Below are positions 6,632 through 23,303 of a stretch of 64,000 nt of DNA, piece after piece; within the stretch, counting starts at the first letter, position 1; each line of letters begins with the position of its first letter. Origin of the DNA: Candidatus Omnitrophota bacterium (GTDB taxonomy: Bacteria; Omnitrophota; Gorgyraeia; 1-14-0-20-64-10); the NCBI GenBank assembly GCA_016177405.1, contig JACOVG010000011.1, positions 7,910-71,909 of the forward strand, written 5' to 3'. Both the position numbers and the translations under genes were made by a program. The notes under the pieces were generated by a model. That model was not told where the DNA came from. It saw only the letters and a list, made by a program, of their open reading frames with translations, and did not search any database.

Positions 6632-8067
6632 CGGATTTTCGGCTCCCGCTTGTGCCAGCCGGACGCCTGCTCGTACGCGTGAGCCGCCTGAAAGAGCTCG
6701 GCCTCCGCGAAGGGCTTGGCGATGAGCTGCATCCCGATGGGAAGCCCCGCGGGGGTGAACCCGCACGGCAGCGACAGGGCCGGCACGCCGGCCAAGTTCA
6801 CCGAGATCGTGTAAATATCGGAAAGGTACATGGTGAGGGGGTCCGAGAGCTTCTCCCCCAGCCGGAAGGCAGGCGTGGGGGAGGTGGGGGTCATCAGAAG
6901 ATCCACCGCCTCGAAGGCCTTGTCAAAATCCCGCCGGATCAAGGTCCTCACCTTCAGGGCGTGAGCGTAATAGGCCTCGTAGTAGCCGGAGGAGAGGACA
7001 AAGGTTCCCAGGATGATCCGCCGCTTCGCCTCCGGGCCAAAACCCTGCCCACGCGTCTTGCCGTACATCGCGAGCAAGGAATCCCCTTCCCCGGACCGGT
7101 AGCCGTACTGCACCCCGTCGAAGCGGGCGAGGTTGGAGCTCGCCTCGGCCGTGGCCACAATGTAGTAAGTCGGGATGGCGTACTCGGTGTGAGGAAGCGA
7201 TACCTCTTGGATCTTGAGCCCCAGCTTCCTGAATTGCTCAAGGGCCGCCTCCAAGGCTTTTTTCACTTCCGGGTCCAGGCCGTCAATCAGATATTCCTTC
7301 GGAACCCCAACCCGAAGCCCCTTAACCGGCTTCTTAAGCTCCTCCAGGCAGTTGGGAACCTTCGCCTCCACCGAGGTGGAATCACGCTGGTCAAAGCCGG
7401 CGATGCCGGAAAACAAAAGGGCGCAGTCCTCCACCGTCTTGGCGATCGGCCCGATCTGATCCAGTGACGAGGCGAAGGCGATCAGCCCATACCGGGAGAC
7501 CCGGCCGTACGTCGGCTTTAAGCCCACCACCCCGCAGAAGGAGGCCGGCTGGCGGATCGATCCGCCGGTGTCCGAGCCCAAGGCAAGCGGCGTCATGCCG
7601 GCGGCCACCGCCGCGGCCGAGCCGCCGCTGGAGCCGCCAGGGACCCTGGCGGTATCCCAGGGGTTCAGGGTGGGTCCGTACGAGGAGTATTCGCAGGAAG
7701 AGCCGAAGGCAAACTCGTCCATGTTGGCCATCCCCAGAAGGATGGCGCCGGCCGCCTTAAGCCTTTCAATCACGGTGGCGTTGTAGGGCGGCCTGAACCT
7801 CGCCAGGATCTTGGAGGCGCAGGTGGTGGGCACCCCTTCGACACAAAGGTTGTCCTTGACCAGGACCGGGACCCCCCAGAGCGGGCCCTTGGACTTTCCG
7901 TCCGCCGTGAGCGCCCCGGCCTGCTTCCGGACAAACTCCGGGTCAAACCAGACCAGCGCCTTGAGCTTGGGCTGGAGCTCCTCGATCTTTTTGATAAAGG
8001 TCTCGGCAATCTCCGGGGGAGCGGCCTTGCCTGTTTGGTAGATAGCTTGAATTTCGCGGGCTGTCAT
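6628..8067 (-). CDS. gatA: Glu-tRNA(Gln) amidotransferase subunit A (amidase signature)
   Basis: Amidase signature GGSSGGSAAAVAAG and GSDTGGSIRQPASFCG. Start placed at MTAREIQAIY (8067). Confidence 0.9.
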   Translation of the reverse strand: MTAREIQAIYQTGKAAPPEIAETFIKKIEELQPKLKALVWFDPEFVRKQAGALTADGKSKGPLWGVPVLVKDNLCVEGVPTTCASKILARFRPPYNATVIERLKAAGAILLGMANMDEFAFGSSCEYSSYGPTLNPWDTARVPGGSSGGSAAAVAAGMTPLALGSDTGGSIRQPASFCGVVGLKPTYGRVSRYGLIAFASSLDQIGPIAKTVEDCALLFSGIAGFDQRDSTSVEAKVPNCLEELKKPVKGLRVGVPKEYLIDGLDPEVKKALEAALEQFRKLGLKIQEVSLPHTEYAIPTYYIVATAEASSNLARFDGVQYGYRSGEGDSLLAMYGKTRGQGFGPEAKRRIILGTFVLSSGYYEAYYAHALKVRTLIRRDFDKAFEAVDLLMTPTSPTPAFRLGEKLSDPLTMYLSDIYTISVNLAGVPALSLPCGFTPAGLPIGMQLIAKPFAEAELFQAAHAYEQASGWHKREPKIR

Positions 8068-8101
8068 TGGCAGGAGTAAAAACTCTCGGCCGTCATTGCG
8101 A

Positions 8102-8123
8102 CCCGCCAACGTTCTTTGGCGGG
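8102..8123. repeat. palindromic element CCGCCAA-N6-TTGGCGG (copy 1), gatA-gatC intergenic
   Basis: cccgccaa cgttct ttggcggg: perfect 8-bp inverted repeat. A second near-identical copy lies at 8499-8522. Confidence 0.5.
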
Positions 8124-8144
8124 GAAGCAATCCCGTTCTTCAGA

Positions 8145-8438
8145 TTAACTCGCCTCAATGATCTTCGGCACCTTGAAGAAGTTCCCCTCTCGGGAAGGCG
8201 CGTTGGCCAGGGCCTGCTCGGGCTTTAACGAGGGCTGAACCTCATCCTCCCGGAAGACGTTGGCCAGGGCCTCGACGTGACTGGTGGGGGGAACCCCTTG
8301 GGTCTTGGCTTCTTTCAGCTTCTCGACATAGGCCAGGATCTCGTCGAGCTCCCGGGTGAACTTCTTCAGCTCCTCGGGGGTGAGCTCGATCCTCGCCAGG
8401 AGGGCCAGATACTCAACGTCCTTAACGGTGATCGCCAT
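8145..8438 (-). CDS. gatC: Glu-tRNA(Gln) amidotransferase subunit C
   Basis: 97 aa. MAITVKDVEYLALLARIELTPEE motif typical of GatC. Operon position upstream of gatA. Confidence 0.85.
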   Translation of the reverse strand: MAITVKDVEYLALLARIELTPEELKKFTRELDEILAYVEKLKEAKTQGVPPTSHVEALANVFREDEVQPSLKPEQALANAPSREGNFFKVPKIIEAS

Positions 8439-8606: not shown

Positions 8607-11600
8607 TTAGGCGAAGCGAGCTCTGAGGATCTCCCAGGCGATCTCTTCGGTGATGAAGCGCATCTCGGTGAAGTAATCGGTCACATCAAGCAGGATGTGT
8701 TTTCCGGAAGAGACCGACCGATTGCTCTCTCTCCAAACCGCAAGAACTTGGGTAGCAAGGAGAGGCAACAACTTGAAGGGGATCGGGCTATCGACACGAT
8801 CCTCCGGTCGCACCGCGTAAACGGTGTCTGAATCCGCAGGCTCCGAAGCTGCGGGTGGCCCCGCCATCAACTTAACAATCCGATAGTCGGATTCTCTGTA
8901 ATGGCTTTCCTGATCGTCTGAAAGCAGATCGACCGCCACCACGGGAAACTTCCCAAGCCCAGTAAGGTTCTGGCCAATCGATTTGAGATGCTCGCCGAGA
9001 TGGGTAATCCCGCTTTTCATCAAAGAGGAATCAACGAGAAGGGCGATTCGGGTTCTATCTTTTGTAATCTCCTCTACCGAGTTACCTGCTCGATCCACCA
9101 CGGCCTTTGCTGCGTTACGCTCCTGCCCTGTCAGCACCTCCTCATAATAGCCCCCTAACAATCCCCCTTCTATGATGGGCGGCTCCTCCTTCCCCTCCTC
9201 CAGCCCGCCAGCGGGGCCCTCCGCCGCAACAGCGGCCTCCTCTGGCAGAAGCAGGAATCCACCCACCAGATCCTCGCGGCTGTATTGCTTCTCGAACGCG
9301 CCATCCGCCGGGGTGATCTGCTCTGCGAACTTCAAAAAGGCACTGCCATTGTCTCCCAGCGCGGCCACTTGAAAATGCTGCCCGGTTTCTCGGCCAATCA
9401 GAACGTCCCCCACCTGAAGGGCGGTAGCGGCATCAATGAACCGCGCCCCTTCCGGGGCGCTCACCGCCTTCCCCTCCTCCAGCCCAGCGAAGGAGTCTTC
9501 GCCCCCAATATGATCCCCGGGTCCAAAGCTTTCCTCCGAAACCACCTCTTCTTCATCGCCCCCAGCAGGCCCCGCGTGAACTGGAATGGATTGTTCGGCA
9601 GAGAGCTTCCGTGTTCTGTGAGGGCGGCTAAGCCTCTGGATTAAGTCCGTTGTTTCGTCCCATTTTTCCCACGCGGCATCTCCCAGTGGATTAAACCAAT
9701 CAAGCCGCCCGGGACGAGGGGGCAATTTAAACATTCCTAGGGTGGCTTCAGCGTCCCGGAGAAAACCGGAACGAGCTTGGAATTGGGCGATCTCGCAGTA
9801 AGCCCTGACTTTTCCACCGTCAGTTGCTTCGCTTCCGTTCACAATTCCCCTTGCCTTTTCGAACGTCTGCTCGGCCAATGTTTTCTTTTTTAACCCAGCA
9901 GAAGCAAACCCCCCGCCGACTTCCCCAAGTATCTGCGCGACACAGAAAACGGTATCATCGGTAAGGCGATCCATGTCCCAAGGCAGCGTGTATCCCTTCC
10001 GGAGGAAACCCACTTTCTTTAATTCTCCAATCAAGAGCTCAAGGAACGATCTGTCATTGATAGGGTATTGGTAGTTGCGCCCCAGCTTGCCAAGCGCTTG
10101 ACCAAAGGTACCGATGGCTTCTGCCTCCAAACCCCTCTCTGCCTGCCTTCCAGCCACATAGGCCATGGCTTCAATTTTATCGCCAACGGCGTCCCGCCCG
10201 ATGAAACCTTCAGCTTCTCGAAGGGCGTCATTGAACCTTCCTTTGTCCGCGTACTTTATGACGTCAGCCATTCGAAGCTTATTCGCCTCACGCTGCTTTT
10301 CCACTATCCCCCAGTCCTCCTCCAGGCCGGAGTACCGCCTAAAAGCTTGCGCTCCGTCGTGCCACTCACGAACCGCATCTTCAGCCCGTGCGGCGTCCCA
10401 ACCTCTTTCAAGCATGAGATCACGTACTCGGGACGAAAGTCCCGCTTGGGTTGCGGGGTCGAGGCCAACGTAGGCTGCAATCCCAGTCCTGTCATCGTTG
10501 GAGCGAACTCGCCTTTCGGACTCCGTTTGATGAGGCCCGCTTTCTTCGAGAAGCTCTCTCTTCCGCGCCTGCTCTTCTTCCCTCATCGCTTCGCGAACAC
10601 GGTTCGCAAAAGTGGGAGCTTTTTCTGTCCCCTCGGGCGACTTGGATAATTTAAGCTGGCTGGCGGTGGCGAGCAAAACGGAACCTGTATCTTCTACCGA
10701 GACGCTCTCTTTTAAGCCAAGGGGCTTGAGGTTGACAAACCAACGATCGTTCGTGCCAAGAAAGAAATCGCCCGTCTCTTTCTCCCAGCCCTCAAAGGTT
10801 CCTATGACGACCCGGCCCTCTTGAATCGCCAGAATGAGGTCACCTTGCGCAAGTTCCTCCGTGTCAAGACTAGAAACATACACGGCACCAAGCCTTCCTA
10901 AAACATACCGGATAAAGTCTTGTTCAAGCTCCCCGACACCCAAGATTCTCCGGGCCCCGGCTTGATCGCCAATGGCCACCGTCTTCTTAAGGTCAGCAAG
11001 GACCTGGGCCGGAAGCTTCGGCTGCCTCTCCTCCAGCCCGGCGGCGGGGGGGAAAAATTGGGCGCCATTCAAGGATGATCTCTCAATGGGGTGCTCCTGG
11101 CCTTCTCGATCTACGAGCACAACGGGCTGAGCTAAGCGTCCAGTCAGCCCAAGATGGTGAGTGAGCTTAACCCGAAAGCTCCCCTTGAGAGCAGGTGTTG
11201 GATCAACGATAACGGTGTCTGCATACAGAATGGTATTAGACCTGACCCGCTGCTGCCCCTCCTCCTGGAGCGAACCGGAAGATTGGGGCTGAAGGGCATA
11301 GGCATCGCCAGGGAGAAGGACCAACTCTGGAATTGCGCCGGCCGGGAAGAACTGGCTCCAGATGTACAAACCCTTCTCCGAAGCCACAGGAAGATGCTGT
11401 TTAAGAAATGGGGCCAGCGGGCTGCCTATCTGTCCTTCCCCCAAGGGAAGCGCCCTGCCCTCTACCCAAACCTCCAGGCGATAGTCTTGATCGTGCTTGA
11501 CCTTCATCTTCTCCAGTGCCGAGATGGCGCCATAACTGGTTGGAATGATCCCGCGCCGGCGAAGAGCCAGAGAGAGCGCGGCCATGTACTGGTTGTACTG

Positions 11601-14600
11601 CTGCGCGGTAAGATGACCCTCGTCGCGCAAACGAACCAGGTCGTGATGCCATCGTTCCGATTGATCTGGAAGAAGCAGCCCCCGGGCGAGGAGTGTCCTG
11701 GCCTCTACCGACTCTAGGAAACCTGGAAAGCGGGCCTGAATTTTTTCTTTCGGTGGAACGCGTATCTTTCCCAAATAGCCGGCGATGGCGGCAAGGGCTT
11801 TGTATTTGTTGACAACTCCAAGGACGGAGCGGGCAGCGGCAAGGGCTTCGGTGAAGGTGGGCCCTGGATCCAAGCCGGCCGATGCCTGGTGTTCAGCGAT
11901 GGCGACAAGGGCTTTGTATCTGTCGGAAGCTCCATTGATAGAGCGGGCAACAACAAGGGCTTCAGTGAATTGGCCAACCGATGCCTGGTGTTCAGCGATG
12001 GCGACAAGGGCTTCGTAATCGAAGGTACGACTACTAATGGAGCGGGCACCGTCAAGGGCTTCGATGAAGGTGGGCCCTGAATCTAGGCCGGCCGATGCCA
12101 GGTGTTTGGCGATGGCGGCAAGGGCTCTGGATTTGTCAGGTTTGCCATAGTCGGAGTAGCTGGAGACGATGGAGCGGGCGGTGGCAAGGGCTTCGGTGAA
12201 TTGGCCGGCCGATGCCTGGTGTTCAGCGATGGCGGCAAGAGCACTGGATCTGTCAGACTTGCTATAGGCGTCGCTGGGGGCGATGGAGCGGGCGGTAGCA
12301 AGAGCTTTTGTGAATTGGCCGGCCAATGCCTGGTGTTCAGCGATGGCGGCAAGGGCTTTGTGTTTGTCGTTATCTCCACGGATGGAGCGGGTAGCGGCAA
12401 GGGCTTCGGCGAAGGTGGGCCCTGGATCTAGGCCGGCCGATGCCTGGTGTTCGGCGATGACGGCAAGAGCTTCGTATTCGTTAAACTCTCTATTGACAGA
12501 GTAGCTGGGGTTGGTGGAGCGAATGGTGGCAAGGGCTTCAATGAATTGGCCGGCCGATGCCTGGTGTTTGGCGATGGCGGCAAGGGCTTTGGATCTGTCC
12601 CAATTGCCGATGGAGCGGGCAGTGGCAAGGGCTTCGGTGAATTGGCCGACCGATGCCTGGTGTTCAGCGATGGCGGCAAGGGCTTCGGATTTGATGGCAT
12701 CTTCATCTTCTTCAGTGATGGAGCGAGCGACGGCAAGGGCTTCGGTGAAGGTAGGCCCTGGATCTAGGCCGGCCGATGCCTGGTGTTCGGCGATGACGGC
12801 AAGGGCTCTGGATCTGCCAGACTTGCTATAGGCAGAATCGGTGTTGTAGATGGGATCGATGAAGCGGGCAGCGTCAAGGGCTTCGATGAAGGTGGGCCCT
12901 GGATCTAGGCCGGCCGATGCCTGGTGTTCGGCGATGACGGCAAGGGCTCTGGGTCTGTCGGCAGTTTCAGGGATGGAGCGGGCGGTGGCAAGGGCTTCGG
13001 TGAATTGGCCGGCCGATGCCTGGTGTTCGGCGATGGCGGCAAGGGCTTCGTATTCGTCGCCAACTTCACTGATGGAGCGGGCAACGGCAAGAGCTTCGGT
13101 GAAGGTGGGCCCTGGATCCAAGCCAGCCGATGCCTGGTGTTTGGCGATGGTGGCAAGGGTTTCGTATTCGCCAGACTCGCCAGAGGCAAGGTAGTTGGGC
13201 CTGATGGAACGGGCGGTGGCAAGGATTATTGTCCAACGCATATGTGTTATTAATTCCACCTCCTCCAGCCCGGCGGCAGGGCCCTCCGCCGCAACAGCGG
13301 CCTCCCTTGACAGAAGCAGGAATCCACCCACCAGCTCCTCGCGGCTGTACCGCTTCTCGAACGCGCTATCCTCCGGGGTGATCTGCTCTGCGAACTTCAA
13401 AAAGGCACTGCCGTTGTCTCCGAGCGCAATCACTTGAAAATACTGCCGGGTTTCTTGGCCAATCAGAATGTCCCCCACCTGAAGGTCGGTATGGGCATCC
13501 ATGAACCGCGCCCTCTCCGGGGCGCTCACCGCCTTCCCCTCCTCCAGCCCGGCGGCTGGTTTAATAAGGGTAGAAATGTTGTATTTGAAATTTTCTTCAC
13601 CCTCCCCCCTCCAGTCGAGAATAAACTCAACCTGTTCAATCTTAGTTAGTGATTGGAGGGCTGGCGGAATTGTGCGATCCTGCCACGAGCCAGGTCCCCC
13701 AGGGGTAGACTCGGGGTGCTCAAGCAAGGCATGAAAGACACCGATTCGTGCTTTCGGCGCTTCCTTCGCCATCTTTAGAATCCAATTGACAATAGGGCGA
13801 TTCGGACCATCAGCATTAGCATACACAAGAACCTCATTGGCTTTCCCAGACTTCAACAATCTCTCTGCAACATCCCATTCGGCCCGAACTGGAATGAGAC
13901 TTTGCTCCCTGTTGCCAGATTCCTTAACCCATTGCTCATGTGATTTCCAAGCCCATTGGGTGTCTCCCACTAACAGGATAATCCGCGCCTCCTCCAGCCC
14001 GGCGGCCGGGCCTTTGGGCTTGGATTTGGAAAGAGCCCTCCTCAAATCGCCTCCAACCTTCCTCCGCTGTTTCAGCGGCTGTAATCCAAGAAGCCGAACC
14101 ATCCCCTTCCCTAGACTGGCCATCCCTCCACCTAGGCTGGCTGCTCCTTTTAGAGTGGCACGTGCGGGGGAAGTTGTGATCTTTGCCGGCAGTTTAGCAG
14201 CGTGTCGGTCCTTCTCTTCCTCCAGCCCGGTGGTGGGGCGAGCGTTCTCCACGTCAGTCTTATCAAGGACAGCATAACCTTTCTCGAGCACCCCATCCGC
14301 CGTCGCATCTTCCATCGTCATGACCAAGAAGGTAAGGATCCTGTCCCCCGAGAAGCCTGATGGCCAGACAACGATCTTTTCCAACTTAAGAAGAAAGCCA
14401 GGTGATTCCCATTTCCCTTGAGTCTTTTTCTTTTGAAGAATCGCCATGATCCGCGGAAGATTTTGTAGGACATAAGTCAAATCTGAAGAATCCTCCCCGG
14501 CCTGTCTAATGACGGAGCTCCGAACAGCAACGAAAGTTTCCTTGGAAGCGCTACCCCTGTTCAATTTCGGATCCCACCCCAAGAATTCTCTAAGATTCTT

Positions 14601-15536
14601 GGGAACAGTTAGATTCAAAGTAAGTTGGGCCGTCCCAAGCTGCCCTTTCCCTGGCATTTTGGGAGTGGGCTCTACACCTCTTTTACGCAAGGTAGGCTGA
14701 AATCCAGCTGGCCCTATGAAGACCAAATCCACCTCAGCATCTGGTGAGCCAGCCGGCTTCTGAACCGCCTCACCCGACTCGATCGAAATCAGGTTTCCTA
14801 TGAGGGAGGCGACCTCTCCCTCAGAAATCTGCCCCTCCTCCAGCCCGGTGGCGGGGCGGGCTTCAGCAAGGGCGTTAAGACGGGCGCCAAGTCCCTCTAG
14901 GGAAGTCGAATAATCCAACAGCCGGTCCTGACGTCGCAAAAAACCTAACTCGCCAATTAGATCAGCCCTATCATCTGGAAACGCGATGATGGGCGGCAAT
15001 CGCTTTAGATCTTTATCCTCAAGTAAAGTTTTGAGAAACTGCATGGCGCGGCCGTTCATGCTGCCTGGAAACAGGATCACCCCGCCAAAAGAGGTTCCTT
15101 TAAACGCTTCAAGCGGATCCCCTTTGGGCGTCCGCAAAACAACCCCACGCCTGCCGACCAGCCGGTGACCTCCACCAACCAACCATATGTCAACGGCGTC
15201 CTTGAAGCTTACAACGTCAAACTTCTCCGGTTCATCCACCACCACCAGCCATTTCAGACCCTCCTCCAGCCCGGCGGCGAGGTCTTCGAGAGGTTCAGGG
15301 CGGGCGGGAGTTACCGTGGACGCGGTTTGGGGTTGAGCAGGAACAACGAGTTGAGCCAGGCGGCGGATGGCTTGGCCGGGACTCTGGAAGACTTCGTTGA
15401 GCTCTTCGAGGCCCGTGGCCTCGGCGGCTGCCTCCTGGCGGAAGGCCAACGCGGGGCTGGGCGCGGCGAGGGTAAGCGCCAAAAGAAGGGCTGTGAAACG
15501 GCTTGCGGCCTTTATCGGGGAGTTGCGCATTCTCAT
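8607..15536 (-). CDS. giant secreted modular protein (about 2,309 aa) of unknown function, punctuated by (P/A)(A/T)(A/T)GLEE motifs, with tandem helical repeats and an internally duplicated module
   Basis: Uninterrupted 6.9-kb ORF, consistent with the codon usage of neighbouring genes (by eye). Sec-type signal peptide MRMRNSPIKAASRFTALLLALTLAAPSPALA from the ATG at 15536; the ORF track starts at a TTG at 15548. Eleven GLEE motifs at aa 46, 93, 235, 441, 517, 667, 760, 1504, 1741, 2022 and 2115, using ORF-track numbering. No catalytic motif recognised by eye. Confidence 0.7.
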   Translation of the reverse strand: MRMRNSPIKAASRFTALLLALTLAAPSPALAFRQEAAAEATGLEELNEVFQSPGQAIRRLAQLVVPAQPQTASTVTPARPEPLEDLAAGLEEGLKWLVVVDEPEKFDVVSFKDAVDIWLVGGGHRLVGRRGVVLRTPKGDPLEAFKGTSFGGVILFPGSMNGRAMQFLKTLLEDKDLKRLPPIIAFPDDRADLIGELGFLRRQDRLLDYSTSLEGLGARLNALAEARPATGLEEGQISEGEVASLIGNLISIESGEAVQKPAGSPDAEVDLVFIGPAGFQPTLRKRGVEPTPKMPGKGQLGTAQLTLNLTVPKNLREFLGWDPKLNRGSASKETFVAVRSSVIRQAGEDSSDLTYVLQNLPRIMAILQKKKTQGKWESPGFLLKLEKIVVWPSGFSGDRILTFLVMTMEDATADGVLEKGYAVLDKTDVENARPTTGLEEEKDRHAAKLPAKITTSPARATLKGAASLGGGMASLGKGMVRLLGLQPLKQRRKVGGDLRRALSKSKPKGPAAGLEEARIILLVGDTQWAWKSHEQWVKESGNREQSLIPVRAEWDVAERLLKSGKANEVLVYANADGPNRPIVNWILKMAKEAPKARIGVFHALLEHPESTPGGPGSWQDRTIPPALQSLTKIEQVEFILDWRGEGEENFKYNISTLIKPAAGLEEGKAVSAPERARFMDAHTDLQVGDILIGQETRQYFQVIALGDNGSAFLKFAEQITPEDSAFEKRYSREELVGGFLLLSREAAVAAEGPAAGLEEVELITHMRWTIILATARSIRPNYLASGESGEYETLATIAKHQASAGLDPGPTFTEALAVARSISEVGDEYEALAAIAEHQASAGQFTEALATARSIPETADRPRALAVIAEHQASAGLDPGPTFIEALDAARFIDPIYNTDSAYSKSGRSRALAVIAEHQASAGLDPGPTFTEALAVARSITEEDEDAIKSEALAAIAEHQASVGQFTEALATARSIGNWDRSKALAAIAKHQASAGQFIEALATIRSTNPSYSVNREFNEYEALAVIAEHQASAGLDPGPTFAEALAATRSIRGDNDKHKALAAIAEHQALAGQFTKALATARSIAPSDAYSKSDRSSALAAIAEHQASAGQFTEALATARSIVSSYSDYGKPDKSRALAAIAKHLASAGLDSGPTFIEALDGARSISSRTFDYEALVAIAEHQASVGQFTEALVVARSINGASDRYKALVAIAEHQASAGLDPGPTFTEALAAARSVLGVVNKYKALAAIAGYLGKIRVPPKEKIQARFPGFLESVEARTLLARGLLLPDQSERWHHDLVRLRDEGHLTAQQYNQYMAALSLALRRRGIIPTSYGAISALEKMKVKHDQDYRLEVWVEGRALPLGEGQIGSPLAPFLKQHLPVASEKGLYIWSQFFPAGAIPELVLLPGDAYALQPQSSGSLQEEGQQRVRSNTILYADTVIVDPTPALKGSFRVKLTHHLGLTGRLAQPVVLVDREGQEHPIERSSLNGAQFFPPAAGLEERQPKLPAQVLADLKKTVAIGDQAGARRILGVGELEQDFIRYVLGRLGAVYVSSLDTEELAQGDLILAIQEGRVVIGTFEGWEKETGDFFLGTNDRWFVNLKPLGLKESVSVEDTGSVLLATASQLKLSKSPEGTEKAPTFANRVREAMREEEQARKRELLEESGPHQTESERRVRSNDDRTGIAAYVGLDPATQAGLSSRVRDLMLERGWDAARAEDAVREWHDGAQAFRRYSGLEEDWGIVEKQREANKLRMADVIKYADKGRFNDALREAEGFIGRDAVGDKIEAMAYVAGRQAERGLEAEAIGTFGQALGKLGRNYQYPINDRSFLELLIGELKKVGFLRKGYTLPWDMDRLTDDTVFCVAQILGEVGGGFASAGLKKKTLAEQTFEKARGIVNGSEATDGGKVRAYCEIAQFQARSGFLRDAEATLGMFKLPPRPGRLDWFNPLGDAAWEKWDETTDLIQRLSRPHRTRKLSAEQSIPVHAGPAGGDEEEVVSEESFGPGDHIGGEDSFAGLEEGKAVSAPEGARFIDAATALQVGDVLIGRETGQHFQVAALGDNGSAFLKFAEQITPADGAFEKQYSREDLVGGFLLLPEEAAVAAEGPAGGLEEGKEEPPIIEGGLLGGYYEEVLTGQERNAAKAVVDRAGNSVEEITKDRTRIALLVDSSLMKSGITHLGEHLKSIGQNLTGLGKFPVVAVDLLSDDQESHYRESDYRIVKLMAGPPAASEPADSDTVYAVRPEDRVDSPIPFKLLPLLATQVLAVWRESNRSVSSGKHILLDVTDYFTEMRFITEEIAWEILRARFA
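9195..9485 (-). repeat. direct repeat copy B (encodes module D copy 2, aa 2022-2118 of the giant protein)
   Basis: About 290 nt, roughly 90% identical at the DNA level to 13260-13550. Protein GKAVSAPEGARFIDAATALQVGDVLIGRETGQHFQVAALGDNGSAFLKFAEQITPADGAFEKQYSREDLVGGFLLLPEEAAVAAEGPAGGLEE. The out-of-frame ORFs 9172-9372(+) and 13195-13437(+) mirror each other and confirm the duplication. Confidence 0.8.
11760..13170 (-). repeat. tandem array of about 12-13 helical repeats (32-47 aa units; consensus ALAAIAEHQASAG[LDPGPT]FTEALATARSI...) within the giant gene
   Basis: Repeated peptide units read directly in the translation. The array corresponds to the cluster of mirror-image out-of-frame ORFs on both strands between 11714 and 13253. 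Two alternating unit types, with or without the LDPGPT insert. Confidence 0.8.
13260..13550 (-). repeat. direct repeat copy A (encodes module D copy 1, aa 667-763 of the giant protein)
   Basis: GKAVSAPERARFMDAHTDLQVGDILIGQETRQYFQVIALGDNGSAFLKFAEQITPEDSAFEKRYSREELVGGFLLLSREAAVAAEGPAAGLEE. Partner of 9195-9485, about 3.8 kb away in the same gene. Confidence 0.8.
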
Positions 15537-15553
15537 TGGGCTATACAAGAGGA

Positions 15554-15624: not shown

Positions 15625-16494
15625 CTAACCCCGCAAGACCCTCTGGAGACGCCCCATCTCCGCCAGGTCGAAGGTTTCGGGGCGGCGGACCGGGTCTATG
15701 CCGGCGGCCCGGAGGCGATCGGCCAGCTCCTGCTTGCCGATGAGATTTCTCGCCCTCGCGGGCTCGAAATGACCGAAAGCCAGAGCATTCAGGAGGGTCT
15801 TGCGGCGGTGGGTGAAGATGAGGCGCACCAGTTTCAGGACGGCCTCCTCTTCCTCGGTCGGAACAACCGGCTTCTCCAGCGGATCAAGCTGGAGGACCGC
15901 CGAGGTCACCTTCGGCTGGGGATAGAAGCAGTTGGGCGGGATCAAGAAGGCGATGGAGGGCTGGAAGGCCACGCCAACCAGCAGGGTGAGGCTGGAATAT
16001 TCCTTGGTGCTTGGCTTGGCCACGATCCGCTGGGCCACCTCTTTCTGGATGGTGAGAACCGCCCGCTTCACCCAGCGCCTCTCCTTCAGCAGATACTCCA
16101 GGATGGGGCTCGTCATCGAGAAGGGGATGTTGCCCACGACCAGCAGCGACTTCTCGATACCGGCGGCGTACGATTCCAGGCCCAGATCAAGGATGTCGGA
16201 CTGGACGATTTTCTTAAGATTCGGACTCTCCTTGAACCGGTCGGTCAGCACCTGAACAAACTTGGCATCCCGTTCGACGGCAAAGAGCTCCGCGCCGGTG
16301 GCCAGCAAGGCCTCGGTGAGCGCCCCCAGCCCCGCTCCGATCTCCAGAATCTTATCCCCGGCGCCAGCCCCGATCGCCAGCGCGATCCGCGCGAGGATCC
16401 TCGGGTCCACCAGGAAGTTCTGCCCCATCCGCCGGGGCGAGATCGCCAGGTGGTACTGCCGGCACAGCTCCTTGATCGCCCTCGAGTTCAACAT
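15625..16494 (-). CDS. rsmA: 16S rRNA (adenine1518/1519-N6)-dimethyltransferase
   Basis: MGQNFLVDPRI, EIGAGLGALT and VGNIPF motifs of KsgA/RsmA. Confidence 0.9.
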   Translation of the reverse strand: MLNSRAIKELCRQYHLAISPRRMGQNFLVDPRILARIALAIGAGAGDKILEIGAGLGALTEALLATGAELFAVERDAKFVQVLTDRFKESPNLKKIVQSDILDLGLESYAAGIEKSLLVVGNIPFSMTSPILEYLLKERRWVKRAVLTIQKEVAQRIVAKPSTKEYSSLTLLVGVAFQPSIAFLIPPNCFYPQPKVTSAVLQLDPLEKPVVPTEEEEAVLKLVRLIFTHRRKTLLNALAFGHFEPARARNLIGKQELADRLRAAGIDPVRRPETFDLAEMGRLQRVLRG

Positions 16495-17486
16495 CAGAGA
16501 ATGAGAGAATGGGTCATCTTCTCATTCTCTTTTCGCCTCAAAGTCAGTCGCTGGGCGAGGCGGAGGGCGGCAAACATGGAGGCGGGGTCGGCCCTGCCCT
16601 TGCCGGCAAGGTCAAAGGCGGTGCCGTGAACCGGCGAGGTGCGGACGAAGGGAAGCCCCAGCGTCACGTTGACCGCCTGCCCCCAGCCCAGGAGCTTCAC
16701 CGGAATCAGGGCCTGGTCGTGGTAGAGGGCCACCACCGCGTCGTAAGCGCCCCGGGCGGCGGCCTGCAGGAGAGAGTCAACCGGAAGAGGGCCTTCCACG
16801 TGAAACCGGCGGGCGGCCGGAAGGAGAATCCTTTTTTCTTCATCGCCGAACAGCCCCCCTTCCCCGGCGTGGGGGTTGAGGGCGGCCAAACCGATCCGGG
16901 GCCGAACGACGCCAAAATCCCTGGTCAGGGCCTCCCGGGTCAAGCGGATGGTTTGGGCAACCTTCTCCCGGGTCAATTGGGAAGGAAGTTCTTTAAGACT
17001 GACGTGGGTCGTCACCAGGCTCACCCGGAAAGAGCCGGTCACAAACATCATCACCACCGGCCGGCGGAAGGCCTTCGCCAGAAACTCGGTGTGGCCCACC
17101 CAGGGAATCCCGGCCTTGACGATCGCCTCCTTGCAAACCGGCGCCGTCACGAGGCCCTCCGCCTGGCCGGCCTTAAGAAGCCGCGCCCCTTCCTCTATAT
17201 AGGCGTGGGCGGCCCGGCCTGCCGCCGGCTGAACCCGGCCCGGCTTCAGGCCCGGCGGGACATTGGGAAGGTCGAGCCACCGGGATTGGCCCCAGGGGAC
17301 AGAGATCTTGAGCTTGCGGCTTAAGTGCTTCAGCCAGCCGAGGTCGCCGATGATGGTAAGGCGAGATTGCTTCGCCCCCCTGCGGGGGGCTCGCAATGAC
17401 GAAAGGGACTTAAGCAGAACCTCCGGGCCGACCCCGGCAGGGTCCCCCATGGTGAGGAGGAGGTTATTTAATGGTGATGTAGGCAA
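16494..17486 (-). CDS. pdxA: 4-hydroxythreonine-4-phosphate dehydrogenase
   Basis: GDPAGVGPEV, VTTHVSLKE and ALNPHAGEGG motifs. Canonical surA-pdxA-ksgA arrangement. Confidence 0.9.
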   Translation of the reverse strand: MPTSPLNNLLLTMGDPAGVGPEVLLKSLSSLRAPRRGAKQSRLTIIGDLGWLKHLSRKLKISVPWGQSRWLDLPNVPPGLKPGRVQPAAGRAAHAYIEEGARLLKAGQAEGLVTAPVCKEAIVKAGIPWVGHTEFLAKAFRRPVVMMFVTGSFRVSLVTTHVSLKELPSQLTREKVAQTIRLTREALTRDFGVVRPRIGLAALNPHAGEGGLFGDEEKRILLPAARRFHVEGPLPVDSLLQAAARGAYDAVVALYHDQALIPVKLLGWGQAVNVTLGLPFVRTSPVHGTAFDLAGKGRADPASMFAALRLAQRLTLRRKENEKMTHSLIL

Positions 17487-18477
17487 CGGCCTTCAGCTTC
17501 TCGATCCATTCCTTGTAGCGGGCCGCTGCCTTTTGCGAGACGATGCGCGTTCGGATGTTGGCCTGGGCCTCTTCCAGGGAGGCCCGGCGGGAGGGGCGAA
17601 CGGCCTCCGCCCGGAAGAGATGAAACCCGGCCTTGGTTTTGACCACGGGGGAGATCTCGCCGGCCTTCAGCGTGAATAAGACCGAGTCGATCTCCTTCAG
17701 GCTCTTTCCCTTCTCCAGAAAGCCGATCCTTCCTCCCATTTGGGCGTTGGGGCCATCCGAATAGCGGCGGGCCAAATCATAGAAATCTTCGCCGGCCAGG
17801 GCCCTGCGCCTGATCTCCTCGGCCTGCTGGGAGGCCCGCGGGGCATCCAGGGGGTCCTTCGGCCTGATCATGATCGTCGCCGCCGAAACAGCCGCCGGAA
17901 GGTCGAACTCCTCCGGGTGGGCGTCGTAGTAGGCGGTGACCTCCGAGGGAGAGACCGCCACCTTCGAGCGGACCTCGCGCCACACCAGCTTCTCGATCGT
18001 GATCTGGTCCCGGTAGCGCGAACGCAGATCCTCCAGGGTGATCCCCTGGGCTTCCAGGGCGGCTTCAAACTCCCCTTCATCGTCAAACTTGGCGATGGCG
18101 TCGTTGACCATCTCATCGATCTCGATCTCGGTGACCGTGATGGGGGGGAGGGTGCCTATCTTTCCCTTGGAAACCTCGACGGGCCGGGGGTTCCTCGCCT
18201 CCTGCAGCATGAGCCTTTCTTCGATGAGCTGGCCGAGGATCCCGGAGCGGATCTTTTCCATCTCCCGGGCCACCTCCTCGGGCCGCCGGCTGGCGGCCAG
18301 CTGAAGGTAAATCGGAGCCAAGGCCTTCTCGAGCTCCGCCTGGGTGACCACCTCGTCGTTGACCACCGCCACAATGCCAAGCTCCTCGGGAAGGACGGCG
18401 GTAAGAAAAACGGCTGTAAGCTGTAAGCAGTAAGCAGTAAGGAAGAAAAGGAGAAGAGATAGAAACTTACGAATCAC
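17464..18477 (-). CDS. surA: periplasmic chaperone / parvulin-type peptidyl-prolyl isomerase (SurA-like)
   Basis: Signal peptide. SurA N-terminal chaperone region followed by a parvulin PPIase domain (GGRIGFLEKGKSLKEIDSVLFTLKAGEISPVVKTKAGFHLF). Lies immediately upstream of pdxA. Confidence 0.8.
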   Translation of the reverse strand: MIRKFLSLLLFFLTAYCLQLTAVFLTAVLPEELGIVAVVNDEVVTQAELEKALAPIYLQLAASRRPEEVAREMEKIRSGILGQLIEERLMLQEARNPRPVEVSKGKIGTLPPITVTEIEIDEMVNDAIAKFDDEGEFEAALEAQGITLEDLRSRYRDQITIEKLVWREVRSKVAVSPSEVTAYYDAHPEEFDLPAAVSAATIMIRPKDPLDAPRASQQAEEIRRRALAGEDFYDLARRYSDGPNAQMGGRIGFLEKGKSLKEIDSVLFTLKAGEISPVVKTKAGFHLFRAEAVRPSRRASLEEAQANIRTRIVSQKAAARYKEWIEKLKAVAYITIK

Positions 18478-19334
18478 GAACCGGAGGCGGCGTTGGCGGG
18501 CTGTGCCTGGTCGGGCGCCGGGGGCGCGAAAAGGCCCTTGTTTTGAACCTGGGCCTTCTCCTTCAGCTCTTGAACAAAGCCTTGAAGCTTGCGCTGTTTG
18601 AGATCGGAGGACAACTTCCTTCGGATTTGCTCCTTCACCTCTTCCAGGGGCCGAGTCCGGGCGGCGCGCCGGTCGGTGAGGAGGATGACGTGGAAACCAA
18701 GCGCGCTCTTCACCACGCCGCTCAATTGGCCGGTCTCCAGCTTCATGCAGGCGGCCTCAAATTCCGGGATCAGCTGGCCCTTGGAAAAAAAGCCGATGTC
18801 TCCCCCCCTGGTCTTGGTCGGGTCGGTGGAGAGCTCCGAGGCCACCTTGGCGAAGGGCTCCCCCTTCTTGAGGCGGTCCAGGGCCTCTCTCGCCTTCTCC
18901 TCGGTTTCCGTGAGGATGTGGCTGGCCCGCAGCGATTCGGGCTCCTTCATCGCCTCGGGATTGGAGGCATAGACGCGCTGGATCTCCTCGTCGCTCACCG
19001 CCTGGGCTTGGGGCTCTCCCGCCGTCTCCAGAAGCCGTCCCAGAAGGATTTGCCTCACCGCCTCCTTTGTGAGCCGGCGGACTTCCGGGTCACGCTCCAA
19101 TCCGCGCCTCCGGGCCTCCTGGGTCAGGATCGTCTCGGTGATCATCTCCTCCAAAAGGCGCCCCTTGTCGTTTCCGAAAGCGGCCCGGGCCGCCGGATTC
19201 AAGCGGCTCATCCGCTCCTCCACCTGGGAAACGGTGATGGTCTGGCCGTTGACCACGGCGGCGATCCGGCTTCCCTGGCCGCAGCCGGTCAGCGCGAGTC
19301 CCCACCCCAGCGCGGCCACCCAGATTTTCCTCAT
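18474..19334 (-). CDS. lipoprotein parvulin-type peptidyl-prolyl isomerase (SurA/PrsA/PpiD-like)
   Basis: Lipobox LALTGCG. Parvulin domain (GGDIGFFSKGQLIPEFEAACMKLETGQLSGVVKSALGFHVILL). Start placed at the ATG at 19334 (MRKIWVAALG); the ORF-track N-terminus is a false extension. Confidence 0.8.
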   Translation of the reverse strand: MRKIWVAALGWGLALTGCGQGSRIAAVVNGQTITVSQVEERMSRLNPAARAAFGNDKGRLLEEMITETILTQEARRRGLERDPEVRRLTKEAVRQILLGRLLETAGEPQAQAVSDEEIQRVYASNPEAMKEPESLRASHILTETEEKAREALDRLKKGEPFAKVASELSTDPTKTRGGDIGFFSKGQLIPEFEAACMKLETGQLSGVVKSALGFHVILLTDRRAARTRPLEEVKEQIRRKLSSDLKQRKLQGFVQELKEKAQVQNKGLFAPPAPDQAQPANAASGS

Positions 19335-21268
19335 GGCGTTGAGTGTATCACACCGGCCTTCAAGGTTTCCACCTCGGCCTTCAGCAGGCGGCAGTAGAGG
19401 TCGAAGCCGACCGCCACGATGTGGCCGTGCTGCTCCACCCCCAGGAGGTTGCCCGCCCCGCGGATCTGGAGGTCCCGCAGCGCGATCTTGAAGCCGGCCC
19501 CCAGGCTGGAGAACTCCTGGACCGCGCTCAAGCGCTTTTGGGCGTCGGCGGAAAGCGGCATCCCGCGAGGCTTCAAGAAGTAGGCGGTGGCCTGGCGGGT
19601 GAAGCGCCCCACCCGGCCCCGAAGCTGATAGAGATCGGCCAGCCCGAAGGATTCCGCCCGGAAGACGACAATCGTGTTGGCGTTGGGGATGTCGATCCCG
19701 GACTCCACGATGGAGGTGGAAACCAGAATGTCCACCTCCCGGCGCATGAAGGAGAGCATGGTCTTCTCCAGCGACCGGGAGGGCATCTGGCCATGGGCCA
19801 CGGCCACCCGGGCCTGGGGCGCGAGCCTCTTCACCCTGGCGCAAACTGCCGCGATCCCCTCGACCCAGGGATAGATCACAAAGGCCTGGCCCCCGCGGCC
19901 AAGCTCTCTGGCCAACGCCTGGCGGATCACCGCGTCATTCTCGTCGGTCACAACCGTCTTGACCGGCAGGCGCTGGTAAGGCGGGGTGTCGATCACCGAC
20001 ATGGCCCTGGCCCCCATCAGGGCCAGGTACAGTGTTCTGGGAATCGGGGTGGCGGTCAGGGTGAGCACATCCACCCCCTCCGTCAGCCGCTTGAGCTTTT
20101 CCTTGTGGCGCACGCCGAAACGCTGTTCCTCATCAACCACGACCAGCCCCAAATCCTTGAACCGGACGTCCCCGGAGAAAAGCCGGTGGGTTCCGATCAC
20201 AACGTCCACCGTCCCTTGCCTCAAGCCCTTCAGGGTTTCGGTTTGGGCCGCCGGGCTTTGGAATCTGGAGAGCATGGCGACCTCCACCGGAAAATCCTTC
20301 ATCCGCCGCTTGAAGGTGTCGTGGTGCTGTTCGGCCAGAATCGTGGTGGGGCAGAGCAAGGCCGCCTGCTTGCCGTCCAGGCAGGCCTTGAAGGCGGCCC
20401 GAAGGGCCACCTCGGTTTTTCCGTAACCGACATCGCCGCACAGGAGACGGTCCATCGCGCGGGAAGACTCCATGTCTTCCTTGGTCTCGTGAACCGCCCG
20501 GCTCTGCGCCGGCGTCTCCCGGTAGGGAAAGGCCTTCTCGAGCGCCTTTTGCCAGTCGGTGTCGGGCCCAAAGGCGTGGCCCCCCGAAGAGAGCCGGCGG
20601 GCCTCGGCCGCCAGCAGTTCAAAGGCCACCGAGTGGGCGCCCTGGCGGGCGATCTCCTTGGTCCTGGCCCAGTAGCGGGTCCCCAGGCGCGACAGTTTCG
20701 GGGGCCGCCCCTCAAAGCCCGCGTATTTCTGGACGAGATGGATTTCCGAAAGGGGCACGTAGAGCCGGGCGTTGTCGGCATACTCCAGGACGATGTGCTC
20801 CACCACCTGGCTCTTCACCCCAACCTTCTTCAAGCCCAGATACCTGCCGATCCCGTGGGTCACGTGGACCACCCCATCGCCCGCCTGGATGTCCACGAAG
20901 GGATCGATGGGATCCTCCTCCCCCGCGCCGGCGGCCCGATACCAGGCCGGGCGTTTCAGGGTATGCCGTTTCAGGGGGGCCGTCGGAAGGACGATCACCA
21001 TCTCATGCTTATCGAAGGGGGCGCCGGTCTCGGGGTGGATGCTCCGGATGGAGGCAACCGTTTCGTGGTCGAACTCCAGGCGCACCGGCGCCTCAAAACC
21101 TTCCGGGAAGATGTCCAGGATGCCGCCCCGCAAGGCGCAGTCGCCGGGGTCATTGACCTTCGGGAACCTTCGGTAGCCGTTGGCCAGAAGAAAGGCCAGC
21201 GCTTGCGAGGGGGCCAGCCGCTGGCCGCGGCAGACTTCTAAGGCAGGAAAGGAGCCCGGGCGGATCAC
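19331..21268 (-). CDS. mfd: short Mfd-like transcription-repair coupling factor (645 aa; D2 fragment + RNAP-interaction domain + translocase; lacks D1a, D1b/D3 and D7)
   Basis: Motifs: RGGILDIFP (D2); VVHVTHGIGRYLGL...LYVPLSEIHLVQKYAG (RNAP-interaction domain); helicase motifs GDVGYGKTEVALRAA, DEEQRFGV, TATPIPRT; TRG region QLRGRVGR. GTG start overlaps the argS stop (GTGA). Confidence 0.8.
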   Translation of the reverse strand: MIRPGSFPALEVCRGQRLAPSQALAFLLANGYRRFPKVNDPGDCALRGGILDIFPEGFEAPVRLEFDHETVASIRSIHPETGAPFDKHEMVIVLPTAPLKRHTLKRPAWYRAAGAGEEDPIDPFVDIQAGDGVVHVTHGIGRYLGLKKVGVKSQVVEHIVLEYADNARLYVPLSEIHLVQKYAGFEGRPPKLSRLGTRYWARTKEIARQGAHSVAFELLAAEARRLSSGGHAFGPDTDWQKALEKAFPYRETPAQSRAVHETKEDMESSRAMDRLLCGDVGYGKTEVALRAAFKACLDGKQAALLCPTTILAEQHHDTFKRRMKDFPVEVAMLSRFQSPAAQTETLKGLRQGTVDVVIGTHRLFSGDVRFKDLGLVVVDEEQRFGVRHKEKLKRLTEGVDVLTLTATPIPRTLYLALMGARAMSVIDTPPYQRLPVKTVVTDENDAVIRQALARELGRGGQAFVIYPWVEGIAAVCARVKRLAPQARVAVAHGQMPSRSLEKTMLSFMRREVDILVSTSIVESGIDIPNANTIVVFRAESFGLADLYQLRGRVGRFTRQATAYFLKPRGMPLSADAQKRLSAVQEFSSLGAGFKIALRDLQIRGAGNLLGVEQHGHIVAVGFDLYCRLLKAEVETLKAGVIHSTP

Positions 21269-22950: not shown

Positions 22951-23303
22951 CCTGATTTCGTCTTGGGGATACGCACACGGGGGGCATCGGCCCACAGCCG
23001 GTCCAAACCGTAGAAGAGACGCTGTTCCGGCAGGAAGAGGTGCCCTACGACCGAACCGTAATCCAACAACACCCACCCCCCCTCCGGGACCCCCTCCCCA
23101 TGGTGAGGCTCCCTGCCCCGAAGGGACAGCCGTTCCCGGATGCGGTCGGCCATGGAGCGAATCTGGGTGGTGGACGAGCCGTTTGAAAGGACAAAGAAGT
23201 CGAAGCTGAAGGAAAGCTTCCTTAAATCCAGAATCGCCAACCCCTCGGCCTTCACCTCAACGGCGGCTTGGGCCATGGCGATGGCGATTTGGCGGGAGGT
23301 CAC
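22947..23303 (-). CDS. rsfS: ribosomal silencing factor RsfS (Iojap)
   Basis: 118 aa. LDLRKLSFSFDFFVLSNGSSTTQIRSMADRI and GWVLLDYGSVVGHLF motifs. Confidence 0.85.
   Translation of the reverse strand: MTSRQIAIAMAQAAVEVKAEGLAILDLRKLSFSFDFFVLSNGSSTTQIRSMADRIRERLSLRGREPHHGEGVPEGGWVLLDYGSVVGHLFLPEQRLFYGLDRLWADAPRVRIPKTKSG

Follow-up and report, generated by a model that had tools for sequence, protein, structure and literature searches.

A divergent TPR-like repeat array in a predicted exported giant protein of Candidatus Omnitrophota

We analyzed a 64,000-nt stretch of DNA from a Candidatus Omnitrophota bacterium (assembly GCA_016177405.1, contig JACOVG010000011.1, positions 7,910 to 71,909; hereafter the window), in which the longest open reading frame (ORF) encodes a giant protein with an internal array of tandem helical repeats. 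Profile searches and structure prediction place the array, as a divergent member, in the TPR/PPR-like superfamily; it is no new kind of solenoid, and it falls in a coherent subfamily that Pfam captures only partly. Taking the evidence as a whole, we regard it as probable that the array forms a continuous alpha-alpha superhelix of ~12.5 TPR/PPR-like hairpins, that it was recently amplified or homogenised, and that it acts as an exported binding scaffold.

Anatomy, relatives and predicted structure of the array

Counted with a half unit at either end, the array occupies positions 11760–13235 on the minus strand and contains 12 full units of 32–47 amino acids (aa), all within the ORF at 8607–15548 (Table 1). 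Tandem Repeats Finder and translation agreed with a preliminary description of this DNA on the coordinates of the array, the number of units, their range of lengths and their consensus, and translation and AlphaFold2 agreed with it in placing an in-frame solenoid of helical hairpins inside the largest gene of the window. Tandem Repeats Finder reported overlapping periods of 99, 114, 231 and 345 nt over positions 11874–13224, with the 345-nt period present in 4.0 copies at a score of 1276. A profile built from the 12 window units scored 710 bits on the giant protein itself, over 13 stretches. The window consensus is ALAAIAEHQASAG(LDPGPT)FTEALATARSI, in which helix A is ALAAIAEHQASAG, the loop is Q or LDPGPT and helix B is FTEALATARSI; the tail that follows is variable and has 7–17 aa.

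Six units are long (G-LDPGPT-F) and six are short (G-Q-F), and the modes of unit length are 33 and 38 aa. The two forms had been described as alternating. Instead, the units run L S L L S S L S S L S L, an arrangement that fits a three-unit super-repeat, consistent with the 345-nt period and with an identity of 0.80 between units at lag 3 versus 0.76 at lag 1. The units had also been described as near-identical, with high DNA identity. This holds for the helical core of 24 codons, where the mean DNA identity is 88% (78–97%) and 80% of codon pairs encode the same residue, but not for whole units, with a mean DNA identity of 78%, nor for the tails after ARSI, which vary in length and are ~50% identical. 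The stacks of alternative-frame ORFs noted on both strands across 11714–13253 are present, and are by-products of the repeat.

We next compared the array with other proteins. Searched against 1.84 billion representative proteins, the unit profile matched 138 protein clusters at E<=1e-3, many of them with 8–22 matched stretches. The top matches were NACHT, NB-ARC, TIR-NB-ARC, HerA-like and caspase proteins with long arrays of the window-type unit. We scanned 63 relatives with Pfam; TPR_12 passed in 31/63, TPR_30 in 18/63, TPR_19 in 11/63 and TPR_2 in 10/63, with the Pfam PPR model passing in 4/63. Partner domains in the relatives were NB-ARC, NACHT, PG_binding_1, TIR, trypsin and caspase. Where Pfam TPR models and the unit profile both matched a relative, they covered the same residues, with the register constant at +2. 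A word-based search with the array alone found 23 proteins at E<=1e-5, with identity of at most 38%; several of these carry the JGI name 'tetratricopeptide (TPR) repeat protein'. A family profile made from the window array and 23 relatives matched solved structures when compared with PDB sequences, with E-values of 6e-31 for the designer PPR protein dPPR10, 2e-20 for TON_1535, 3e-15 for an engineered TPR protein, 2e-10 for a consensus TPR protein, and 1e-5 to 6e-3 for the TPR domains of OGT, AfsR, Rap and LGN, those of AfsR and Rap being close to 1e-4.

Across 286 units taken from 138 other proteins, the consensus reads ALaaIAeAQAkAG(qDaGAt)FaEALsTARSIeDaydR. A homologous 5-residue insert follows the conserved Gly in about half of these 286 units, and unit spacings peak at 31–33 and 36–40 aa. 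Because the insert is this common and the spacings are bimodal, the long/short dimorphism, together with the D-x-G-x-T content of the insert, is by sequence comparison a trait of the family and no peculiarity of the giant gene. The window units would thus belong to a TPR-like subfamily of the form AL..IA.AQA.AG(.D.G.T)F.EAL.TARSI.D...R, which elsewhere lies C-terminally in STAND NTPases and in caspase, trypsin and peptidoglycan-binding proteins. The array by itself matters little, being one more divergent TPR-like scaffold in a very large superfamily, within a protein that otherwise gives no hint of its function. It does anchor a coherent TPR-like subfamily with mixed units of 33 and 38–40 aa that is widespread in bacterial NLR-like and protease proteins, and it indicates that this subfamily has been reused outside the STAND context, in a predicted exported Omnitrophota protein.

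We set the TPR register using Pfam TPR_1/TPR_2 matches on one relative (P0005) and hhalign, such that the TPR position equals the unit position +2. The canonical 34-aa TPR has the signature residues W4, L7, G8, Y11, A20, F24, A27 and P32. Positions L4, I7, A8, G15, F17, A20 and L21 are kept in the window units; of the signature, the units lack Y11 (Gln), F24 (Ala), A27 (Ile) and P32. Unit position 8 is His (codon CAC) in 12/12 units, within IAEHQA, such that helix A has E-H-Q in every unit. Across the family this position is Ala in 192/286 units, and His is outside the four commonest residues there. In TPR numbering this is position 10, usually occupied by a small residue involved in packing. 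Flanked by Glu and Gln, the recurring His may alter superhelix packing, may add pH or metal sensitivity, or may simply descend from the founder unit. We rejected one further Pfam candidate, DUF6895 (PF21836), which scored 26.7 bits against a cut-off of 23.8 with three partial stretches on ~42 positions (218–259) of its 289, a resemblance between helical hairpins only.

AlphaFold2 models of the array had a predicted local distance difference test score (pLDDT) of 65 from the single sequence, and a pLDDT of 78 with a predicted template-modelling score (pTM) of 0.72 from a 24-sequence alignment. The latter model has two helices per unit throughout, with low confidence only in the long tails. For both models, Foldseek returned PPR/TPR superhelices with probability 1.00, E-values of 3e-6 to 1e-4 and template-modelling (TM) scores of 0.25–0.49. 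The top PDB matches were designed PPRs (5i9f, E 3e-6; 6een, TM 0.49), APC/C TPR subunits, the TPR region of OGT, LGN and IFIT.

In the superhelix that we propose, each unit would pair a helix A of roughly 15–20 residues, (D/N)xxxALAAIAEHQASAG, with a helix B of 9–12 residues, FTEALATARSI. The loop between the two helices would be short (3 residues) or long (5–6 residues, LDPGPT), and the loop between units would vary in both length and sequence. TPR-like superhelices are binding scaffolds. Because the array combines such a superhelix with a near-invariant helix A, hypervariable loops and a predicted signal peptide on the giant protein, we infer by analogy that it most likely serves as a rigid scaffold in the periplasm or at the surface, to which a partner protein or periodic ligand would bind. 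Such a scaffold, lying outside the cytoplasm, would present a near-invariant helix-A groove, with E-H-Q in each unit, and one edge formed by the hypervariable loops.

Evolution of the array and variation in unit number among its relatives

Core codon pairs that encode the same residue in two units use the same codon in 87% of cases, as compared with the 33% that codon usage elsewhere in the gene would predict. Within the array, GAA and GAG occur in a ratio of 31:1, and CTT accounts for 25/26 codons among CTT, CTG and CTC, whereas the rest of the gene and its neighbours favour GAG and CTG. Because the shared codons far exceed expectation and codon choice in the array differs from that in the rest of the gene, we conclude from the sequence that the units are alike by descent, beyond protein-level selection, and that the array was recently amplified or is being homogenised. 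Divergence is much greater in the inter-unit loops than at synonymous sites in the helices. This could reflect either an old duplication with gene conversion restricted to the helical core, or a recent amplification with rapid change and indels in the loops. The array may have originated by amplification of a three-unit block (L-S-x), after which the loops would have taken most of the divergence, or gene conversion would have acted in the helices only.

Exact repeats between units include four of 50–58 bp and six of 30–36 bp. These suffice for RecA-type unequal exchange, and bear little resemblance to the short, perfect repeats found at classical slippage loci; the array would therefore remain a moderate substrate for RecA-type unequal recombination. 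Relatives of the array give clean natural examples of the gain and loss of whole units. In one cluster of 90% identity, proteins of 512/511 aa and 479/478 aa (P0159/P0162 versus P0148/P0161) differ by an exact indel of one 33-aa unit and are otherwise ~100% identical. In another cluster, P0156, P0175 and P0177 (660, 596 and 564 aa) have the same two termini, and the differences between them, of 64 and 32 aa, fall within the array. By analogy with these relatives, expansion and contraction by whole units is plausible for the window array. Repeat-number polymorphism has also been documented in internally conserved TPR arrays of fungal NLRs (PMC4986451). Four other members of the P0156 cluster, P0181, P0182, P0183 and P0184, have frame shifts inside the repeat array (e.g. 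...ECWQHWRSAWKGCSRRQC...), which are either assembly or sequencing errors in the repeats or real frameshift variants.

The preliminary description saw in the array a source of size variation by slipped-strand or unequal recombination. In its strongest form, this would make the array an active contingency locus, in which frequent unequal recombination or slippage varies the number of units, and with it how long an exposed solenoid is. This idea fits alongside the amplified TPR-like scaffold that we favour, adding to it a rate and a purpose, and it is in keeping with the codons shared by descent, the exact repeats of 50–58 bp, the whole-unit indels between near-identical alleles in the two clusters of relatives and the fungal polymorphism. 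We found no second copy of the locus in any collection searched, whether by contig look-up with the deposited protein (P0001), by a 27-nt pattern from the repeat core or by a protein-guided scan of JGI metagenomes. Moreover, adjacent units are identical in the polymorphic relatives, whereas the window units have unique tails and the whole-unit identity given above, and at 96–141 nt they are too long for classical slipped-strand phase variation. We therefore consider frequent, purposeful variation at this locus doubtful.

The host protein and its AGLEE motifs

The giant ORF encodes 2313 aa when read from a TTG; the NCBI version starts at an ATG at position 15530 and has 2307 aa. The product is 100% identical over 100% of its length to a protein (P0001) named by NCBI 'MAG: hypothetical protein HYS41_02595 [Candidatus Omnitrophica bacterium]'. 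Neither the whole protein nor any of its ten non-repeat modules matched a Pfam or NCBIfam family. On the whole protein at E<=1, the sole Pfam rows were Remorin_N (E 0.041) and TPR_19 (E 0.52), both far under the cut-off. A whole-protein word search for orthologs returned only the protein itself and one NB-ARC repeat protein. The N-terminus has a basic n-region, a hydrophobic core and A-L-A ahead of the predicted cleavage site, read by eye from the translation, and this predicted Sec-type signal peptide makes export of the giant protein plausible.

The gene lies between rsmA and gatC, with surA-pdxA-rsmA on one side and gatCAB on the other, all on the minus strand. Its GC content is 56–58%, as compared with 63–67% in the flanks (5177–8438 and 15625–23076), and its GC content at third codon positions (GC3) is 0.59–0.62, as compared with 0.82 in the housekeeping neighbours (gatCAB, rsmA, pdxA, surA-like and argS), whose overall GC content is about 64%. 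Because both values are well below those of the flanks, this composition suggests that the gene was acquired horizontally, evolves fast or is under a very different selective regime. Downstream of the array module, at about 9699–10241 on the minus strand (aa ~1770–1950), we observed a second, degenerate helical stretch of TPR-type appearance (KYADKGRFNDALREAEGF..., AMAYVAGRQAERGLEAEAIGTFGQALGKL...), which Pfam did not detect.

Table 1. Positions of the giant ORF, the repeat array and associated features in the window
Feature	Position (nt)	Strand	Residues (aa)	Basis or remark
Giant ORF, read from TTG	8607..15548	-	2313 in all	ORF list and translation; longest ORF of window
Predicted Sec-type signal peptide MRNSPIKAASRFTALLLALTLAAPSPALA	15444..15530	-		Cleavage before FRQE; translation judged by eye
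Leading half unit, helix-B-like WTIILATARSI and 14-aa tail	13161..13235	-	772-796	Translation; helical in AlphaFold models
Twelve full units	11799..13160	-	797-1250	Translation, Tandem Repeats Finder, unit profile
Unit u1, long	13047-13160	-	38 in length	
Unit u2, short	12948-13046	-	33 in length	
Unit u3, long	12807-12947	-	47 in length	
Unit u4, long	12684-12806	-	41 in length	
Unit u5, short	12588-12683	-	32 in length	
Unit u6, short	12471-12587	-	39 in length	
Unit u7, long	12357-12470	-	38 in length	
Unit u8, short	12243-12356	-	38 in length	
Unit u9, short	12126-12242	-	39 in length	
Unit u10, long	12012-12125	-	38 in length	
Unit u11, short	11913-12011	-	33 in length	
Unit u12, long	11799-11912	-	38 in length	
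Trailing degenerate half unit ALAAIAGYLGKIR, helix A only	11760..11798	-	1251-1263	Translation; array end
Rest of array module	11046..11759	-	1264-1501	No recognisable family (Pfam, E<=0.1)
98-aa cassette, copy 1	13259..13554	-	666-763	Directly N-terminal of array module
98-aa cassette, copy 2	9194..9489	-	2021-2118	
GLEE motif 1	15402-15413	-		
GLEE motif 2	15261-15278	-		
GLEE motif 3	14835-14852	-		
GLEE motif 4	14217-14234	-		
GLEE motif 5	13989-14006	-		
GLEE motif 6	13539-13556	-		
GLEE motif 7, AAGLEE before array	13260-13277	-	758-763 (Pro 757)	Exact GCCGCCGGGCTGGAGGAG; 9 residues upstream of first array helix
GLEE motif 8, AAGLEE closing array module	11028-11045	-	1502-1507	Exact copy of the 18-mer
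GLEE motif 9	10317-10328	-		
GLEE motif 10	9474-9491	-		
GLEE motif 11	9195-9212	-		

The giant protein contains eleven in-frame GLEE motifs, mostly of the form P-[AT]-[AT]-G-L-E-E, at apparent module borders. The array makes up the N-terminal two thirds of one 740-residue module delimited in this way; after the array, the first ~70 residues of the remainder (from aa 1264) are low-confidence helices in the first AlphaFold model. An identical 18-mer, GCCGCCGGGCTGGAGGAG, encodes 5/11 of the motifs and near copies encode four more, as compared with a mean of 0.46 matches in shuffled sequence. A cassette of 98 aa (AGLEEGKAVSAPE...LKFAEQITP...AAEGPAxGLEE), with no family match, is present twice, and its copies share 84% aa identity and 91% DNA identity over 296 nt, with both ends exactly on AGLEE.

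Scanning representative genomes for the 18-mer gave 119 loci among the matches listed, mostly chance single matches in high-GC genomes; the source genome was absent from them. Also among the matches listed, at least one Planctomycetia and at least four Omnitrophota loci (L050, L051, L053, L066 and L075) have 1–6 AGLEE motifs in one frame, with at least two motifs in four of them. In the Planctomycetia ORF, every one of the GNAT, ThiF-like, alpha/beta-hydrolase and formyltransferase domains falls within one interval between motifs, and a PfkB kinase and a receiver domain are likewise bounded by AGLEE motifs at the Omnitrophota loci. A tblastn comparison of the giant protein with the AGLEE-bearing loci found no similarity beyond the motif. 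G-L-E-E is kept with different codons in L075 and L053, which points to constraint at the protein level. In an uncultured Actinomycetes locus (L030; CAWFHL010000002.1, frame +0, aa 1104 and 1528), each of two short ORFs closes with ...AAGLEE-stop, after which comes AMS(Q/E)E; they resemble a small family of repeated genes with no relation to the PVC motif, and the likeness is probably coincidental.

We rejected three other accounts of the motif. GLEE is not a feature of the TPR family, occurring 4 times in 120,711 residues of relatives, which is approximately chance by a residue-frequency estimate. The GGAGG inside the AGLEE codons does not mark an internal translation start, as no start codon lies at a consistent downstream distance. 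Lastly, a nucleic-acid function suggested by the conservation of the motif's DNA is weakened by the other codons in L075 and L053, and GCC, CTG and GAG are preferred by the flanking housekeeping genes.

AGLEE may mark a site of processing, act as a linker or join cassettes. If it is a processing or cassette-exchange site, the array would be one cassette of a 'beads-on-a-string' polyprotein in which P-A-A-G-L-E-E, often encoded by GCCGCCGGGCTGGAGGAG, frees or shuffles a solenoid unit of ~740 residues, with the array released as a separate protein by cutting at the two flanking motifs. A residue-frequency estimate predicts about 0.06 occurrences of the motif where there are eleven; this excess, the exact ends of the duplicated cassette, the separation of enzyme domains in Planctomycetia and Omnitrophota ORFs and the recoded motifs of L075 and L053 are all consistent with cutting. 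The literature on Omnitrophota giant proteins proposes cleavage and states that the cleavage points are unknown; AGLEE is not mentioned in two papers on these proteins (bioRxiv 10.1101/2023.11.21.568195, bioRxiv 10.64898/2026.06.07.730766), one of which makes that statement. Nevertheless, the candidate sites are known from sequence alone, it is equally conceivable that the motif is a structural linker or a scar left by recombination, and we identified no protease gene nearby, the neighbours being housekeeping genes. The loci outside the window are an ascertained sample, found through the motif's own DNA, and for this reason AGLEE is a lead rather than a result. Overall, release or exchange of the array at these motifs seems unlikely. 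The motif could still matter more than the array, as it gives module borders that can be tested in large proteins from Omnitrophota and Planctomycetia; were the polyprotein reading true, it would be the first candidate for where giant proteins of these phyla are cut or joined.

Weighing the classification and comparison with known systems

Several observations weigh against an exported TPR-like scaffold. The window array alone scores 23.3 bits on TPR_19, for which the cut-off is 25, and the other TPR models have E>0.1; the Pfam models for HEAT, PBS-lyase HEAT-like and Sel1 repeats match neither the array (E<=10) nor the whole protein (E<=1). As to TPR, the preliminary description was thus correct that the window sequence on its own has no clear match. 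Searches of PDB sequences with phmmer using the array, and with the 12-unit profile, found nothing meaningful. The 12-unit profile does not align with a consensus TPR, and the 286-unit family profile aligns with the same consensus in the expected register with P=0.005 at best (hhalign). The TPR-like classification is hence transitive, made at the level of the family, because the window sequence alone passes no curated TPR model. Foldseek supports the predicted fold class but, with TM-scores this modest, does not support a particular superhelix geometry. With regard to function, the rest of the giant protein is an orphan, and 'binding scaffold' is a generic, putative role.

Some of these observations speak for an array unrelated to TPR, HEAT or Sel1, the unclassified alpha-solenoid proposed in the preliminary description: the giant protein has no significant Pfam match, the array is under every TPR cut-off, and the 12-unit profile finds neither a PDB protein nor an alignment with consensus TPR. 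However, many relatives found with the unit profile pass Pfam TPR models on the same residues, the unit joins an existing repeat superfamily through its 138 relative clusters, the family profile matches solved PPR/TPR proteins with E-values down to 6e-31, the TPR positions listed above are in register, and the model of pLDDT 78 matches PPR/TPR superhelices and not a new solenoid. An unclassified solenoid is thus largely refuted, and we consider it very unlikely.

We also regard it as very unlikely that short-read metagenome assembly created the array or distorted its copy number. The source is a metagenome-assembled genome, tandem repeats are a classic cause of collapse and chimeras, and several relatives have frameshifted arrays. 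Against this, the frame is intact over 12.5 units and the entire 6.9 kb ORF, every unit has a unique tail, and the longest exact inter-unit repeat, of 58 bp, is below the largest k-mers of common assemblers.

In PPR proteins, the base-specifying residues are at positions 5 and 35 of a 35-aa unit, with a residue of the N/T/S type at position 5. That the array reads single-stranded RNA or DNA at one base per unit is scarcely credible, even though designer PPR proteins are its best PDB matches by sequence and structure and a few relatives pass Pfam PPR, as its units have 33 or 38+ aa and not 35, the residue at PPR position 5 is Ala in 7, Val in 4 and Thr in 1 of the 12 units with no position-specific base code, Pfam PPR does not match it at E<=10, the giant protein has a predicted signal peptide, and designed PPRs are idealised consensus helices rich in Ala, Leu and Glu that attract any TPR-like profile. 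Based on its unit length, its position-5 residues and the lack of a Pfam PPR match, we conclude from the sequence that the array is no PPR in the functional sense.

The divergent TPR-like array that we favour is closest to the C-terminal TPR arrays (TPR_12, TPR_30, TPR_19, TPR_2) of STAND/NLR-like NTPases and of caspase, trypsin and peptidoglycan-binding proteins, with which it has the unit consensus in common. Like the window array, these arrays mix units of ~33 and 38–40 aa, place an insert after the conserved Gly and form helical hairpins; the relatives have 8–22 units. They differ in that the giant protein, scanned whole and module by module, has no NTPase, TIR, caspase, protease or peptidoglycan-binding domain and thus no fused STAND NTPase, protease or peptidoglycan-binding effector. 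In addition, its array is internal rather than C-terminal, it has a predicted signal peptide, its units have His at position 8 where the family has Ala, and the best identity is 38%.

The designed and consensus PPR and TPR structures (dPPR10, 6een; dPPR-U10, 5i9f; CTPR, 8bu0/1na0/2fo7), together with TON_1535 (3zpj), gave the best profile matches (E 6e-31 to 7e-3) and structural matches. These proteins have in common with the window array the register of helix A, turn and helix B, the turn Gly and the helix-B 'EAL'. By contrast, the window units have 33 or 38+ aa rather than 34/35, a helix B shorter by about one turn and variable inter-unit loops, and they lack both the PPR code residues and TPR Y11, F24, A27 and P32; TM-scores are no higher than 0.25–0.49.

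The TPR, ANK and WD arrays of fungal NLRs (Dyrka et al. 2014, PMC4986451) resemble the window array in their high within-gene unit similarity and signs of concerted evolution, and resemble its relatives in the polymorphism of whole-unit number between alleles. The fungal arrays are cytoplasmic receptor domains fused to NACHT or NB-ARC, and have >=85% aa identity over whole units, whereas the window array has matching residues at 80% of core codon pairs and far more divergent loops.

Giant proteins from the same phylum include the 'Archaeovorins', which have TPR domains (bioRxiv 10.1101/2023.11.21.568195), and a tandem-repeat scaffold class has been described among Omnitrophota giant proteins (bioRxiv 10.64898/2026.06.07.730766). 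These giants run to tens of thousands of residues and combine many enzyme, transmembrane, peptidase and SecA-like modules, whereas HYS41_02595 has 2,313 aa and the repeat as its only recognisable module. What they share with it, besides the phylum, is the architecture of a large multi-module protein with a TPR-type scaffold.

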